Shown here piece by piece: positions 38,846 to 43,544 of a stretch of DNA of 64,000 nt. This stretch comes from Nitrospirota bacterium. Its GTDB lineage: Bacteria; Nitrospirota; UBA9217. The first letter of the stretch is position 1. Each line of letters starts with the position of its first letter. The translations under genes and the position numbers were made by a program. The stretch covers positions 64,001 through 128,000 of the forward strand of contig CAVVOB010000023.1 of the NCBI GenBank assembly GCA_963749655.1. Reading direction: 5' to 3'. The notes below the pieces were generated by a model. That model ran no database searches. It worked only from the letters and a program-made list of their open reading frames with translations, and was not told the DNA's origin.

Positions 38846-39190
38846 TTAATAGCCAAGCGGCTCCCACGACCTGAACATGTTGACCTCTTCTCCCGGATTC
38901 GGTAAGCCGGCTATCTTCCAGGCCTTGACCGGGTCCATGAACTTGTCCGTAACGCAGTTCTTCGGCTGGTGCACGTTCTTGCACACATACCGCACGATGG
39001 GGAAAAATTTGTGCTTCTGGTAATAGGTCCTCAGAAACTTCAGGATGTCGATCTGGTCCTCTAACAGGTAAGGGATGCCCTCCTTTTCAGCAAGGAGGCG
39101 CGCGATCGATTCATCCCAGTCTTCAAAGCTTACCAGGAACCCGTCTCCGTCGATAATTATTGTCTTTCCTTCATGCTCGAATATCGGCAT
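38846..39190 (-). CDS. TusE/DsrC/DsvC-family protein lacking the C-terminal cysteines
   Basis: IDGDGFLVSFEDWDE...KIAGLPNP; C-terminus ends GEEVNMFRSWEPLGY. Confidence 0.88.
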   Translation of the reverse strand: MPIFEHEGKTIIIDGDGFLVSFEDWDESIARLLAEKEGIPYLLEDQIDILKFLRTYYQKHKFFPIVRYVCKNVHQPKNCVTDKFMDPVKAWKIAGLPNPGEEVNMFRSWEPLGY

Positions 39191-39227
39191 AGGTTCCTTC
39201 TTTTTTAACAACGGGACATGCCGAAGC

Positions 39228-39842
39228 TCATTTCGGTTTATTGTCCCCGTTAAACAACTGCGGGTAGAGCTTATGGGCGCAATCCGGGCAGATGCCGTGG
39301 GAAAATTCCGTACCCGAATGGGCGCTGATATATACTTCCACCTGAGTCCAGTAGCCCTTGTCATCGCGGATCTTCTTGCAGTTTGCGCAGATGGGAAGGA
39401 TCCCTCTCAATTGTTTTATTTCCTTCATGGACCGCTCGAGCTGGCTCAGCAATTTTGTGCGCTCGATGGCATAGCGGATCGCGCGTCCCAGCGCCGGGCC
39501 GGTGACCAGACCTTTGACCAGATAGTCCTGCGCGCCTTTGTGGACCGCTTCGACGGCAAGATCGTCGTCGTCGTGACCGGTCAGTACGATGATCGGGATG
39601 CCGGATGCCTGCGCATATACCGTTTCAAAGGTCTTGATGCCGACGGGACCGTCGGGGAGAGAGAGGTCCAGCAGAATGACGTCAAAAAGAACGCGCTTCA
39701 GGCTTTCCAGGCCACCGGCGAGCGTATCGAAATGGATCACATTGTACCTGATCTTTTTCGAAGCGTTCAGATATCTTGCGATCAGCGTCGCGTCGTCGGC
39801 GTTGTCTTCGATCAACAGCGTATTTATGCTTTTCGTGTCCAT
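39228..39842 (-). CDS. Response regulator with C-terminal Cys/His module
   Basis: LIEDN, LLDLSLPD, QDYLVK; tail LRGILPICANCKKIRD...FSHGICPDC. Confidence 0.9.
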   Translation of the reverse strand: MDTKSINTLLIEDNADDATLIARYLNASKKIRYNVIHFDTLAGGLESLKRVLFDVILLDLSLPDGPVGIKTFETVYAQASGIPIIVLTGHDDDDLAVEAVHKGAQDYLVKGLVTGPALGRAIRYAIERTKLLSQLERSMKEIKQLRGILPICANCKKIRDDKGYWTQVEVYISAHSGTEFSHGICPDCAHKLYPQLFNGDNKPK

Positions 39843-40046
39843 GCGTTTAACTCTTCGCGCGGCATTGGGAACCCTGGGACCGGCGAAACCAGTGCTGGTC
39901 AGCCTTGACGTGTTGACCAGAGACTCACAGGGAACGTCGTTTTTATCTATAACTATCTTAACATATTCTCTGAGGTCAACCGTAGTTATGAGCGCTGATT
40001 TTTGAGAAGGAACAACAAAGGCCCGGGAAATTCCCGGGCCTGCTTG

Positions 40047-40185
40047 TTTGATGGTTTCGTAATAAGTCGTCATTCCCGCCTGTCGGGAATCGTTGTGCTT
40101 TACAACAAGTAGAAAAGAAACGACTCCGGACAAGCCGGAGTGACATCAAAAAAAGGCTTATCGCCTTTTTACGAGGCTATCTTAT
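40047..40185. repeat. MITE-like element with inverted CGTC-type REP pair
   Basis: CGTCATTCCCGCCTGTCGGGAATC ... GACTCCGGACAAGCCGGAGTGAC; ends related to 34052-34245. Confidence 0.7.
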
Positions 40186-41333: not shown

Positions 41334-42603
41334 TCAAAAAAACATCGAAGCACTCAACCCGAGTCCGTAGGCTACGCTCGTGAAGGCTTCCCGCTGCTGC
41401 ATCTTCTCCTGACCGAAGCGCCGGACAAAGAGGTCCCTGACGATCGGGATATGGGAAGTGCCGCCGGTGGTAAAGATCACGTCGATGTCGCCGGGCCGGA
41501 GCCCCGCCTTCTGCACCGTATCATCGATGCACGCTGAAATCTTTCCAATATGACCGCTGATGGCTTCCTCGAATTCTTTCCGCCCGACCGCTTCTCTGAT
41601 CTCAAGGCCCTGTTCGCGGAAAAATATCATGGACTTCTCGTAGGAAGACAATTCTATCTTTGCCTTTTCGAGAGCCTGGAAAAGCAGGAAACCGTTGTTG
41701 TCTTCGATCAGGTTCTGGAGGTTCGTGATGGCAGCGGGGTCGTCCGCCGTGATCCTTATGCCCTGGAGGGCCTCCCTGACGCTGTTCGTGCGGAGCTGCG
41801 GGACCAGGTGCCAGTTGATCAGCTTGAAGGTAATGGAGCTCGGCATCTCGAGCGTCTGGCCTGTCATGCTTTTATACCGTACGTCTTTGCCGAAGTATTT
41901 GGCGACCTTCTCCCACATGAGCCGGGAATCGAACGCATCGCCGGCTGATGGCGACGCCGCCCAGGGAGAGCACGTCCTTTGCCCTGTCCGCCTGGCCGGA
42001 CTTGCCTCCCGTCAGCCTGATGACCGTAAAATCCGAGGTGCCTCCGCCGAAATCGCCGATCAGGACGATCTTTTCCTCGTCCTTTGCCAGGCTGTTCTCG
42101 AACGTCAGGGCGGCCGCGACAGGCTCCAGCTGGAAAGCCACATGCTTGAACCCGGCGATCTCGGCCGCCCGCTTGAGCCGCCCCTCGGCAAGGATGTCCT
42201 TGTTCCGGTCCTCGGAAAAAACCACCGGCCTTCCCATGACCACATCAGTCACTTCGTGCCCTACAAACTCCTCTCCCCGCTTTTTGACGGTCAAAAGGAC
42301 CAGCGCGATCAGATCTTCCAGCTCGTACCGCTTCCCGTTGACGTAGGTATATTCGAAGGCCGCGCTTGGCAGAAAGGATTTGATCGACTGCATGAACCTT
42401 CCGTGGCCGCGCTGCTCTATATATTGCACGATCGCTTCCTGGCCCAGGTAGACGCCCTGCTCCTGGTCCATGAAGATCACGGACCGCATCGTCTTTTCCG
42501 TGGGATTGTGCGGATCGATATCGATCACTTCCGTGCGGCCCTGCGCATTTACGGCAAGCGCCGAATTCGTGGTTCCAAAATCCAGTCCGAAAACAGTCTG
42601 CAT
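41334..42603 (-). CDS. Hsp70-family protein (YegD-like), frameshift near 41945
   Basis: GLDFGTTNS, SIKSFLP, GRPVVF, EPVAAA, DFGGGTSDF; TGGTS and FTSVAYGL in a second frame. Confidence 0.9.
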
Positions 42604-42718
42604 GTGGTCATCCTTGTGATGTCGTATGGGGAGCCGAAGTCACAAAATACTTGTTTCAAAAACTGCTGTCCAATCAAAAAATAGGCCCCCTCACGGGGTC
42701 CCCTTGATCGAGAAACAC

Positions 42719-42750
42719 AAAAGCCGGCTGGATAAATCCCGCCGGCTTTA
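42719..42750 (-). terminator. Intrinsic terminator downstream of the candidate RNA
   Basis: Minus strand AAAGCCGGCGGGATTTATCCAGCCGGCTTTT. Confidence 0.8.
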
Positions 42751-42758
42751 AATCAAAA

Positions 42759-42988
42759 GGCGTTGCTTCTCGCGATCCAGACCGTTTCGTTGATTCTCGG
42801 GCATTGCCGATGGTTGCCGGTGCTCACGCTTCCGTGCTTTCGCAATTCCTGAAACGGCTCACTTCCATCGTTGTCCGACGCTCTTCGGAGCTATCAGCTT
42901 GCCGGCCGATCTTTCAGGTTGGCAATTCAAGCTCTCAACGAAATGCAGAATACGCGTAACACACTCTTCCGTGTGCTGTAGCAACGCC
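42759..42988 (-). ncRNA. Candidate ~230-nt structured non-coding RNA, family not recognised
   Basis: 9-bp closing helix GGCGTTGCT/AGCAACGCC; nested helices; GNRA loops; TATACT 7 nt upstream; terminator immediately downstream; no ORF called. Confidence 0.7.
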
Positions 42989-43136
42989 TACTCATAGTAT
43001 ACCTCAGTATCGTCAAAAGTGGAGCCCTCAATTCCATCCGACGACATTAGTCTTACACTATAGTTTTTTGCTTCTTCGACGCTTCCTCGTCGATCGAGAT
43101 GAACGCGCTTTTTGATCCCCGGAATCCCGGCTCCTT

Positions 43137-43544
43137 TCAATCCGATGAAGAGACGAGGACAGCCGCCTTTTCAGGGGGCTCCTCCAAGGCGACAGCCGAT
43201 CGCTGACCGCTCACTGCTGCACCTTCATACCCGCCGGCCGATGCCTTTTTCATGCTGAGTACAGCCGCAATCATCCCGAAGATCATGGCAAATAAAAAGA
43301 TGATGCCTCCGCAGACCCGCATGGCAATGGCGACACTCGACCGGACCTTTTCCAGTATCAAAGACGCCGCTCTTTTACCGGAGGTAGTTTGGTCTGAGCT
43401 GAAGGCTGACTGCTGATCGCTGACTGCTGCCTTTTCAACCCCATTCATAGTCTGCGTCCCCCTTACTATTACCAAAGTATCGCCATGTTTAATGGTAAGT
43501 GTGGAGCAATCGCCACATGAGTCATTATCGCCACAAAGCAGCAT
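43137..43544 (-). CDS. Hypothetical single-TM protein containing heptamer-repeat-derived peptides (start uncertain)
   Basis: One hydrophobic helix; AVSDQQSAFS and AVSGQRSAV are encoded by TCAGCNG-type heptamers. Confidence 0.45.
   Translation of the reverse strand: MLLCGDNDSCGDCSTLTIKHGDTLVIVRGTQTMNGVEKAAVSDQQSAFSSDQTTSGKRAASLILEKVRSSVAIAMRVCGGIIFLFAMIFGMIAAVLSMKKASAGGYEGAAVSGQRSAVALEEPPEKAAVLVSSSD

Follow-up and report, generated by a model that had tools for sequence, protein, structure and literature searches.

Large, intricately folded RNAs conserved throughout a bacterial lineage are rare, and past cases have led to ribozymes, riboswitches or RNA-only assemblies. The raiA motif RNA, OLE, ROOL and GOLLD, as well as Acido-1, Chloroflexi-1 and Bacteroidales-1, are orphan structured non-coding RNAs of bacteria that are restricted to particular lineages. 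Here, we analyzed a 64,000-nt stretch of DNA (hereafter the window) from the genome of an uncultivated Nitrospirota bacterium (referred to as G000), whose minus strand carries a gene for a comparable RNA. Like RNAs of the raiA, OLE, ROOL and GOLLD type, it has a free-standing gene and a covariation-supported fold of hundreds of nucleotides, occurs in one lineage and was found comparatively; unlike them, it has no Rfam 15 match to any of these families. The family to which it belongs had not been described before and is confined to a single order-level lineage of uncultivated Nitrospirota. The original prediction for this DNA had proposed a structured RNA; beyond that prediction, the RNA in the window proved to be a shortened paralog within an order-wide family.

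An independent RNA gene in the window

Positions 42988-42759 on the minus strand are an independent gene for a highly structured, non-coding RNA of 230 nt, the ends of which are closed by GGCGUUGCU/AGCAACGCC. Its transcript is ended by the U-run after the closing helix and by two terminator hairpins. The gene and its signals are as follows:

43011-43016, minus strand: TTGACG box, 9 nt upstream of the -10 hexamer (read from the sequence)
42996-43001, minus strand: -10 hexamer TATACT, 7 nt (atgagta) before the first base of the closing helix
42759-42988, minus strand: RNA, "short" family variant, 230 nt (model R1, 267 bits; model R2, 84 bits; fold)
42711-42749, minus strand: intrinsic terminator 1, AAAGCCGGC...GCCGGCUUUUGUGUUU (sequence reading and ViennaRNA fold)
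42675-42701, minus strand: second terminator-like hairpin, GG-A-CCCC-GUGA-GGGG-G-CC, then UAUUUUUU (sequence reading)

The original prediction of a minus-strand structured RNA with its own -10 element and terminator was confirmed in its TATACT 7 nt upstream, in the 230-nt span, over which GGCGTTGCT (42988-42980, minus strand) pairs perfectly with AGCAACGCC (42767-42759), and in its hairpins. It had also correctly stated that no -35 element lies at 17 bp: the TTGACG box is only 9 nt from the -10 hexamer, which is too near for a standard -35. This spacing recurs in homologs: in both accessory and core copies, 8-9 nt separate a TTGACA box from the -10. The -10 of most homologs is of the extended type (TGnTATAnT) and lies equally far from the RNA in accessory copies and about 50 nt upstream in core copies; the -10 in the window, unlike that of most homologs, is without the TGn extension.

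In terminator 1, GCCGGC (42746-42741) pairs with GCCGGC (42728-42723) and is followed by a U-run at 42722-42711; most accessory copies have a similar GCCGGC-type hairpin and U-run downstream. The second hairpin consists of CCCC-GUGA-GGGG and a U-run. A simple terminator scanner reported no terminator in 42550-43200 and flagged neither hairpin, having missed terminator 1 because of the bulges in its stem; the terminator calls are therefore based on the fold, for terminator 1, and on sequence reading.

The RNA had a fold z-score of -3.47, and none of 100 shuffles was equally stable. Because the plus strand folds comparably (z-score -4.75), folding energy alone cannot choose the strand; the minus strand was chosen on account of the promoter, the terminators and the greater number of G-U than A-C cells in the homolog pairings (433 vs 247). 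Sequence lengths were evenly spread modulo 3 (52, 39 and 38 of 129 sequences), which argues against a conserved reading frame. Stop-to-stop frames on the sense strand were not short (median 69 codons), so that a frame-length test alone cannot exclude coding. The generic marks of a stand-alone structured non-coding RNA, namely its own promoter and terminator, a covarying structure and presence in RNA libraries, were all found.

Fold and covariation

The family fold comprises about 16 helices, arranged as a long stem (P1, P2, P4 and P5) with a side hairpin (P3) and a junction with two domains. Every helix covaries except the terminal P1. The main elements in the window copy, from the 5' end, are as follows:

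42980-42988, minus strand: P1 5' strand GGCGUUGCU, paired with 42767-42759; near-invariant in 61 homologs
42958-42977, minus strand: P3 hairpin, AGCACAC, loop GGAAGA, GUGUGUU; 3 of 4 modelled pairs double-changed in homologs
42945-42956, minus strand: P4 5' strand, CGCG-U-AUUC-U-GC, paired with 42782-42771
42935-42943, minus strand: P5 5' strand UUUCGUUGA, paired with 42793-42785; covaries
42888-42934, minus strand: P6 and the enclosed short arm; GAGCU (42934-42930) with AGCUC (42892-42888)
42865-42870, minus strand: P13 5' strand CGAUGG, paired with 42813-42808
42827-42856, minus strand: P15 (CGUUUC with GAAGCG) enclosing P16 (UGC-GAAA-GCA, GNRA-capped); both covary in homologs
42808-42813, minus strand: P13 3' strand CCAUCG (covariation and window pairing)
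42785-42793, minus strand: P5 3' strand UCAACGAAA (covariation and window pairing)
42771-42782, minus strand: P4 3' strand, paired with 42956-42945
42759-42767, minus strand: P1 3' strand AGCAACGCC, then UUUU (sequence reading and homolog comparison)

The sequence of P1 is almost invariant (GGCG-U/C-UGC / GCA-A/G-CGCC): across 61 sequences, four of its nine pairs never vary and three vary on one side only, whereas 68 of the 73 pairs outside P1 changed on both sides. Apart from the protein recognition proposed below, this invariance could arise from a constraint on transcription start or termination, from a processing site or from pairing in trans. All eight modelled pairs of P4 covary (62 sequences). 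P13 is a long-range helix that closes the 3' domain and has the strongest covariation (columns 207-211/286-290 of alignment A4). P13b and P14 are weak in the window, with 2-3 bp that are broken by variants in RNA-library contigs. In the short arm, UUGCC (42925-42921) pairs with GGCAA (42903-42899) around the loop CCUGAAAGAUCGG; long homologs have a 100-nt arm inside P6, made up of four helices (P8-P11) and absent from the window copy.

Most of the pairings originally proposed held up. CACAC/GTGTG (P3), TTTCGTTGA/TCAACGAAA (P5), GAGCT/AGCTC (P6), TTGCC/GGCAA (short arm) and CGATGG/CCATCG (P13) are made of standard pairs alone in the window and covary wherever homologs retain them; a GCCG/CGGC pairing is ambiguous. 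Two GNRA tetraloops had been proposed, of which UGC-GAAA-GCA corresponds to P16 and is GNRA-capped in most homologs, whereas GC-GUGA-GC was dropped: its stem has only 2 bp, conflicts with the covarying P15 and is missing from one homolog (L009).

In a sequence-only MAFFT alignment of 25 homologs, from which the structure was partly derived before being first tested on it, 86.0% of cells pair, compared with 34-42% when the partners were slid. On the same alignment, 42 of 82 pairs were double-changed, against 23.5 ± 3.1 in shuffled alignments, and none of 500 shuffles reached 42. In 62 model-aligned sequences, an alignment fitted to the model being tested, 69 of 82 pairs and 494 cells were double-changed, against 179.7 ± 12.5 cells. 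These results bear out the original reading as a structured RNA. RNAalifold, run on a MAFFT alignment of all 29 first matches, recovered almost only P1, and the model-R1 alignment A3 was too gappy for use. Among the candidate helices, a CCU...AGG hairpin (P12) and a GGAU/AUCC hairpin (P17) both gave way to P13 and P13b (GGA/UCC). P17 pairs in 13-22 of 25 sequences and P13b in 24-25 of 25; it is possible that P17 takes part in a pseudoknot.

Matches in RNA libraries

In four RNA libraries from four studies, all aligned contigs lay inside 42760-42975, and the flanks had none. Two of the contigs, 208 and 209 nt long, were almost wholly within the RNA, and coverage extended over 42762-42972 and 42770-42965. 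Of the 23 positions that differ in these contigs, 16 are unpaired in the fold model. The contigs are relatives 90-95% identical to the window sequence, possibly including DNA carry-over, and so do not give the strand, the exact ends or the transcription of the window's own copy. All eight sequencing runs contained small shares of the query words; contig depths are per-contig values and were not taken as expression levels. The host order has dsr-type genes and is often encountered in wetland, soil, sediment and groundwater data, and the RNA was also seen in RNA libraries from habitats of these types.

Distribution of the RNA family

Covariance model R2 matched 63 of the 64 species-level genomes of the window's taxonomic family, which is its whole order, with 1-5 copies each; the matches include all 32 high-quality genomes and all 19 genera of the order. 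None of 123 genomes from 21 other Nitrospirota families was matched. Model R1, built on two sequences, had matched only 24 of the 64 genomes, and the patchy picture that it gave was overturned by the better model R2. At order level, a search with R1 took in no genomes beyond the 64 of the family-level search and added one locus. In G000, BLAST found one copy and the models two. We collected 129 unique sequences or loci; the RNA ranges in size from 230 to 343 nt. A pattern scan of metagenomes returned 85 stretches, and R2 gave 79 matches among the 80 of them that were listed; viral contigs gave no match. Weak BLAST matches in three genomes (G005, G016 and G022) lay inside coding sequence or on the terminator only and were attributed to chance.

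No match to Rfam 15 (4,227 models) was obtained anywhere in the window at the gathering threshold. At E-values up to 10, the sole overlap in the window region was RcsR1, at 21.7 bits (cut-off 60) and on the terminator hairpin; at E-values up to 1, nothing was reported on the RNA at 15 homolog loci. A full-text literature search, judged from listings and abstracts, found no description of this RNA. The original prediction of an unassigned, tertiary-structured non-coding RNA thus stands, with no Rfam match, conserved and covarying homologs, and library contigs that cover the RNA only.

Core and accessory copies

A syntenic core copy, about 310 nt long, is present in each adequately complete genome of the lineage. 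One to four extra copies occur in many of them as well; each forms a self-contained promoter-RNA-terminator cassette of some 0.5 kb, and these cassettes stand in unrelated surroundings or in tandem. The window copy is such an extra copy, which lost the long P8-P11 arm. The core copy of G000 lies outside the window, at C23:25018-25330.

The core copy was syntenic in 20 of 20 fetched loci, and its sole constant neighbour is a divergently transcribed gene for a chorismate-binding enzyme (pabB/trpE-like), found at 78 of 129 unique loci. In G000, the genes that follow on the same strand encode a thioesterase, a methyltransferase, a pterin-4a-carbinolamine dehydratase, FolB and HPPK. Core copies have different downstream genes in different genera, and in at least 15 of the 78 core loci that gene is convergent. 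Core copies end in P1 and UUUUUU, with no separate hairpin. In other taxonomic families, another gene directly precedes the pabB orthologs, and a search for the RNA beside them gave only two chance-level matches (E-values 3-7).

The resemblance among accessory copies is limited to a stretch from about -105 to +95 around the RNA, a short similar motif flanks the unit on both sides, and their peripheral loops differ from those of core copies. Among the loci compared, no gene was linked to accessory copies. None of the 28 other loci first examined (29 including the window) shares a flanking ORF cluster with the window locus, which is the outcome that had been proposed as speaking against a cis-acting element; the closest homolog (G008) has a convergent gene downstream.

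Proposed function and alternative explanations

Taken jointly, these results are best explained by an independent, lineage-restricted RNA gene whose product acts in trans, most likely as the RNA of a ribonucleoprotein, an explanation that we consider probable but far from certain. The RNA would act as a stable structural RNA, rather than as an mRNA leader or mainly as an antisense regulator. The most likely mechanism would be a ribonucleoprotein with a lineage-specific protein that recognises the invariant terminal helix and the U-rich 3' tail sequence-specifically. The two covarying domains may serve as a scaffold or decoy surface, and additional copies may raise or vary the dose. Our best guess is thus a protein-bound or scaffold RNA recognised via P1. 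A bolder and tentative proposal, which we regard as possible but not likely, is that this is a fifth "housekeeping-grade" structured RNA that arose in one anaerobic, uncultivated Nitrospirota order: a catalytic, self-assembling or new-RNP core with a standing like that of OLE, raiA and ROOL, with 0.5-kb cassettes that have spread between genera and with P1 as the functional site.

Several alternative explanations are less well matched to the data. A YegD-like Hsp70-like gene on the same strand has its ATG at 42603, 156 nt downstream of the RNA, and the original prediction had left open whether the RNA was stand-alone or an attenuating leader of that gene. The stand-alone reading was retained; the leader is hardly credible, given that RNA and gene are separated by two terminator hairpins and by a promoter-like site (TGGACA-17-TATTTT, 42672-42644), that no other locus of the family has this neighbour, that the RNA-library contigs stop within the RNA and that the Hsp70-like gene is itself broken into two frames. 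More generally, a constant 5' UTR position before related same-strand genes, as expected of a cis leader, was not found for this RNA. A riboswitch of the folate/pABA neighbourhood, in which P1 and the U-run would form a ligand-dependent terminator and extra copies would control other genes, is in our view distinctly unlikely. The core copy is indeed divergent from the chorismate-binding gene and, in G000, followed by pterin and folate genes on its own strand, and core copies do end in P1 and UUUUUU. However, the constant neighbour is on the opposite strand, the downstream gene differs between genera or is convergent, accessory copies have a full separate terminator followed by unrelated genes, pabB orthologs of other families are without such an RNA, and no alternative anti-terminator pairing was noticed by eye. 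A DNA-level repeat or MITE-like mobile element with terminal inverted repeats, rather than a functional RNA, would account for the inverted-repeat ends, the 0.5-kb accessory units in unrelated places and tandem arrays, and the motif on both sides of the unit. It is nevertheless very improbable: the original prediction had named many dispersed copies with target duplications as the sign of such an element, and we found two copies in G000 and 1-5 elsewhere, with a terminal motif that is not enriched in the genome, a syntenic core copy, a promoter and terminator in each unit, no viral matches, and compensatory changes that keep RNA helices, including G-U pairs possible on one strand only. The inverted ends also misfit attC sites of integrons in size and motif when compared with the consensus. 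A retron msr-msd or an omega/bridge RNA was rejected since no ORF cluster recurs beside accessory copies; in a Pfam search of 19 neighbouring proteins (9 from the window and 10 from the core locus of G000), the neighbours of the core copy were metabolic or housekeeping genes, as opposed to reverse transcriptase, IscB/TnpB or IS110. Paired 5' and 3' ends and conservation throughout the lineage would also suit a highly diverged representative of a known class (6S, RNase P, SRP RNA, tmRNA or Y RNA), but we give this almost no credence, as no Rfam family scored on the RNA even at E-values up to 1-10 and the four universal RNAs are encoded elsewhere above their Rfam cut-offs in each of five genomes: 6S (RF00013, 86-103 bits; C22 in G000), RNase P type A (RF00010, 265-280 bits; C30 in G000), and SRP RNA and tmRNA (RF00169 and RF00023). 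The original prediction had likewise set aside SRP RNA, RNase P, tmRNA and, from the multibranched fold, 6S RNA. For Y RNA, the Ro/TROVE domain (PF05731) was found in none of the five genomes (four at least 98% complete, G000 87%), while Deinococcus and Bacteroides controls matched.

Two further explanations accept the RNA gene and differ in how the RNA would work. It may function without a dedicated protein, as a ribozyme or a self-assembling particle with the invariant P1 as reaction or docking site; self-assembly into higher-order particles has recently been described for other large orphan bacterial RNAs. A length of 230-343 nt, about 16 covarying helices, GNRA-capped peripheral hairpins, a long-range helix and order-wide conservation with no linked protein gene are all in keeping with this, yet it seems rather unlikely to us: apart from P1 and a handful of junction bases the subfamilies have no conserved unpaired core in common, core copies have other peripheral loops than accessory copies, short variants do without a whole arm, and no hammerhead or other ribozyme family scored on the 15 homolog loci. 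A CUGAUGAG-like, hammerhead-like motif on the opposite strand of the accessory downstream flank was discarded, with no hammerhead family scoring there. Alternatively, the RNA could be a base-pairing regulatory sRNA, with a conserved single-stranded seed and a chaperone at its U-rich 3' end. Several paralogs per genome are common among regulatory sRNAs and are found here too; the gene also stands alone, with its own promoter and terminator, and the last stem is followed by a U-run. This explanation is unlikely, as typical seed-pairing sRNAs are far smaller and less intricately folded, almost no unpaired stretch that could serve as a seed is conserved across 62 sequences, and the window copy has 134 of its 230 nt in pairs. 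A CsrA sponge was rejected as well: each RNA has 4-12 GGA motifs, which are not conserved between core and accessory copies. The trans-acting ribonucleoprotein RNA remains our preferred explanation.

Comparison with known systems

The RNA is new relative to Rfam 15, and the absence of a match in the window agrees with its original description as unassigned. The contrasts within the family, between syntenic core and movable extra copies, long and arm-deleted variants, and an invariant P1 and covarying helices, constitute a natural experiment. The covariance models would also allow the annotation of a feature that has been left blank in hundreds of metagenome-assembled genomes.

Y RNA, the partner of Ro60/Rsr, resembles this RNA in its conserved terminal stem of 5' and 3' ends, U-rich tail, variable inner modules and several, sometimes adjacent, paralogs. 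However, the RNA described here has two to three times the size, it is not matched by any Y RNA family, no TROVE/Rsr gene was found in the five genomes searched, and its sole conserved protein-gene neighbour is the chorismate-binding enzyme gene. 6S RNA (RF00013) is likewise abundant, stable and free-standing, with paired ends and, in some bacteria, two paralogs; it is a rod with a central bubble, whereas our RNA is multibranched and co-occurs with canonical 6S RNA in five of five genomes. Riboswitch aptamers, such as that for cobalamin, share the multi-helix junction and GNRA loops, and the G000 core copy lies among folate and pterin genes, as a folate-pathway riboswitch might. In contrast to riboswitches, this RNA has no Rfam riboswitch match, no constant downstream gene, and constitutive-looking terminators after its accessory copies. 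Compared with the orphan RNAs, finally, it is confined to one Nitrospirota order and essentially universal there, and differs from them in its combination of core and accessory paralogs, tandem arrays, arm-deleted variants and an invariant terminal helix.

Features of the RNA locus

The 230-nt RNA is encoded on the minus strand, and the elements of the original prediction (a TATACT box, a 7-nt spacing, paired ends of the 230-nt span, and a GC hairpin with a U-run) are all present there. The features, in window coordinates, are as follows.

43016-43011, minus strand: TTGACG box, 9 nt before TATACT, read from the sequence
43001-42996, minus strand: TATACT (-10 element), 7 nt before the closing helix, read from the sequence
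42988-42980, minus strand: 5' strand of the closing helix P1, GGCGUUGCU, read from the sequence
42767-42759, minus strand: 3' strand of P1, AGCAACGCC, ending the 230-nt span, with UUUU next
42746-42741 with 42728-42723, minus strand: terminator hairpin, GCCGGC with GCCGGC, U-run to 42711
42701-42675, minus strand: second hairpin, CCCC-GUGA-GGGG, plus U-run
42672-42644: promoter-like site TGGACA-17-TATTTT between the terminators and the Hsp70-like gene, from a promoter/terminator scanner
42603, minus strand: ATG start of the Hsp70-like gene
41872-42603, minus strand: Hsp70-like frame 1, 243 aa, HSP70 profile positions 1-218
41334-41918, minus strand: Hsp70-like frame 2, 194 aa, HSP70 profile positions 256-372

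The two terminators, whose stems are bulged, were called from the fold and from reading the sequence, and the scanner flagged neither. ViennaRNA predicts for the minus strand a closed fold with multiple branches and, after it, the terminator hairpin (-108.8 kcal/mol, z = -3.47, 0 of 100 shuffles equally stable). Because the plus strand folds about equally well (z = -4.75), folding energy does not settle the choice of strand.

The promoter spacing is odd: a TTGACA-like box lies just 8-9 nt 5' of the -10 element in the window (43016-42996, minus strand) and in most homologs, and the -10 hexamer of most homologs bears a TGn extension. The Hsp70-like gene (41334-42603, minus strand) is broken into two overlapping frames, suggesting that the reading frame shifts near 41900 through an assembly error or because the gene is a pseudogene. 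Also within a few kb of the RNA are a response-regulator gene (39228-40133, minus strand) and a DsrC-like protein gene (38846-39364, minus strand), in agreement with a sulfur-cycling Nitrospirota lineage.

Homologs and phylogenetic distribution

By BLAST, the window's own genome (G000, a MAG in 39 contigs with 87% completeness) showed one copy, and G008, from the same genus, held one clear relative of 289 nt, with the same closing helix, a TGTTATAAT -10 element, two insertions and a convergent downstream gene. A covariance model of these two sequences (R1) matched in 24 of the 64 genomes of the window's family, which are also the 64 genomes of its order. A second model (R2), built on the structure derived from 25 long homologs, detected the RNA in 63 of the 64, the lone miss being 68% complete. 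Every one of the 32 high-quality genomes and 19 genera was positive, and copy number ranged from 1 to 5 per genome. Across an evenly drawn sample of the phylum, R2 matched 27/27 genomes of this family and 0/123 genomes from 21 other families.

Scanning one genome for each GTDB species with a sequence pattern yielded 13 loci, 10 titled Nitrospirota/Nitrospirae MAGs and three otherwise labelled. The RNA-bearing MAG records L040, L044 and L048 bear the titles Betaproteobacteria, "uncultured Rhizobium sp." and Sedimentisphaerales, respectively; L040 appears to be the G008 contig, placed in the window's own genus by the genome collection, and the deviant labels are probably due to mis-binning or mislabelling. 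In metagenome contigs a pattern scan picked out 85 stretches, with 79 R2 matches in the 80 listed, and viral contigs gave none with the same pattern. The 140 collected hits comprised 129 unique sequences (237-343 nt) in 42 clusters at 80% identity.

Across the 64-kb window, no Rfam 15 family reached its gathering threshold. In a permissive scan of 42400-43300, the sole overlap was RcsR1, scoring 21.7 bits (cut-off 60), on the terminator hairpin, and permissive scans of 15 homologous loci placed no family on the RNA, in keeping with the novelty originally proposed. Known housekeeping RNAs were rejected, since 6S RNA, RNase P RNA, SRP RNA and tmRNA were each located elsewhere above cut-off in 5/5 lineage genomes, including G000; the lack of SRP RNA, RNase P and tmRNA hallmarks and of a 6S-like shape noted at first agrees with this and with the multibranched fold. 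The TROVE/Rsr protein required by Y RNAs turned up in 0/5 genomes. In the full-text literature searched, judged by titles and abstracts, the family does not appear. By Rfam 15 and this literature, the window RNA belongs to a family without described relatives. At L008:617-696 (minus strand), about 0.8 kb from an accessory RNA copy in a relative's genome (G010), lies a c-di-GMP-I-GGC riboswitch (RF03167) that scores 67 bits, above its cut-off; it is unrelated to the family.

Secondary structure and expression

The consensus structure runs from P1 through a short P2, the side hairpin P3, P4 and P5 to a two-domain junction. The first domain consists of P6, which in long forms encloses an arm, P8-P11; the second is closed by P13b/P13 and holds P14, P15 and the hairpin P16, usually GNRA-capped. 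The homologs covary as the prediction anticipated. In a sequence-only MAFFT alignment of the 25 homologs, 86.0% of 2020 cells were standard pairs, against 34-42% with partners slid by 1-3 columns, and 42/82 pairs had two-sided changes, against 23.5 +/- 3.1 in shuffled data (0/500 reached the observed value), the helices having been picked with help of covariation in this same alignment. Among 62 sequences aligned to R2, and hence fitted to it, 37 of them independent of its building, 80.8% of cells were paired (34-44% slid), and two-sided changes occurred in 69/82 pairs and 494 cells (shuffled, 179.7 +/- 12.5 cells). The excess of G-U cells (433) over A-C cells (247) supports the assigned strand.

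P1 behaves differently: across 61 sequences, four of its nine pairs never vary and three vary on one side only, against two-sided changes in 68/73 non-P1 pairs. Outside P1, just scattered junction bases are conserved across all subfamilies. In the window copy every mapped helix contains standard pairs only (134/230 nt paired), and a 27-nt hairpin replaces the P8-P11 arm; such short forms (237-257 nt) are present in several genera.

Small portions of the stretch appear in eight public runs, half of which are recorded as RNA. In four metatranscriptome runs, one from each of four studies and all available as contigs, the matching pieces are all located in 42760-42975 and none in 42600-42751 or 42980-43140; two contigs (208 and 209 nt) map almost wholly to the RNA (42762-42972 and 42770-42965). 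The contigs derive from relatives, being 90-95% identical to the window. Library contigs confined to the RNA suggest that it is expressed; they carry no strand or exact-end information and may include DNA carry-over. Sixteen of the 23 differing positions are unpaired in the model; three of the seven in helices keep the pair, and the four that disrupt pairing are confined to P13b, P14 and the inner pairs of the short arm, which are the weakest helices.

Core and accessory copies

The core copy, a syntenic form of about 310 nt, has the same surroundings in all 20 loci examined with 5-kb flanks: a chorismate-binding enzyme gene (Anth_synt_I_N + Chorismate_bind) is oriented divergently from the RNA at a distance of about 115-150 nt. 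Past that gene come SMC-like ATPase, tmk and holB-like genes (named from sequence alone). The core copy of G000 lies on the window's contig (C23).

C23:25018-25330 (= L071:5019-5331), plus strand: G000 core copy, 313 nt, R2 69.8 bits, 39 kb before the window start

It sits between the divergent chorismate-binding enzyme gene and a same-strand run encoding thioesterase, methyltransferase, oxidoreductase, pterin-4a-carbinolamine dehydratase, SDR, FolB and HPPK. Core copies have a TGnTATAMT element about 50 nt 5' of P1 and terminate in P1 plus UUUUUU without an additional hairpin. Those at L071-L090 carry a conserved (G/A)TCTTTGA(A/G)A box about 13-20 nt 5' of P1, in the presumed leader, which is absent from accessory copies and could be a processing or regulator site. 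The pabB-like gene adjoining the core copy has an apparently ordinary TTGACC-17-TACAAT promoter on the opposite strand. Outside this family, orthologs of the chorismate-binding enzyme gene (51-62% identity) lack an adjacent RNA of this kind and have another same-strand gene immediately 5'.

A constant downstream gene had been proposed as the mark of a cis element. What is constant is the divergent upstream chorismate-binding gene of core copies (78/129 unique sequences); downstream genes vary (thioesterase in 35 loci, methyltransferase in 33, a 416-aa protein in 17), are convergent in at least 15 core loci, and accessory copies, the window's included, have no neighbour in common. Fourteen long accessory copies, drawn from several genera, resemble one another only between about -105 and +95 relative to the RNA, a span that takes in promoter, RNA and terminator. 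Tandem arrays are also seen, with pairs in several metagenome contigs and three copies in contig C90 of a relative's genome, G015.

L032 (G015 C90), same orientation: tandem copies at 1501-1810, 1896-2211 and 2377-2697

Two or three same-orientation copies, 70-350 nt apart, also occur at L077, L109, L132, L155, L156 and L162. A similar motif, TTTTCGTT(T)CCCT.CATC, flanks the accessory cassette at about -85 and +75 relative to the RNA, bracketing a 0.5-kb promoter-RNA-terminator unit; it may be a tandem-duplication trace or a border repeat.

The window copy is an accessory, arm-deleted paralog. Of the two options first offered, the stand-alone gene is upheld by its own promoter element and terminators and by the lack of a neighbour common to accessory copies; an attenuating leader of the Hsp70-like gene is contradicted by that same lack and by the intervening terminators and promoter-like site. 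Dispersed MITE copies, raised as a counter-reading, did not appear, with at most five copies per genome and no enrichment of the P1 motif in G000. The window RNA is neither a leader of the Hsp70-like gene nor a MITE nor a known housekeeping RNA.

Possible functions

A free-standing, conserved, structured ncRNA gene is very probably real, and we infer that its product is a stable structural RNA that functions in trans. P1, which has a U-rich tail, is invariant while the other helices covary, and sequence-specific recognition of P1 is the best explanation for this contrast, a protein being the simplest candidate to recognise it. The most likely mechanism would be that of a ribonucleoprotein scaffold or decoy, a tentative choice held with less than even confidence. 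An RNA-only function, as a ribozyme or through self-assembly, and seed-pairing regulation are less likely rivals, as is a folate-linked riboswitch, which is suggested only by the gene neighbourhood of the core copy and is contradicted by the strand, by the variable and convergent genes downstream of core copies, and by the accessory copies.

The RNA represents a new family within a known kind, the lineage-restricted, orphan, structured bacterial RNAs. Its near-universal presence in one order, its core-plus-accessory gene system and its invariant terminal helix are unusual for such RNAs.
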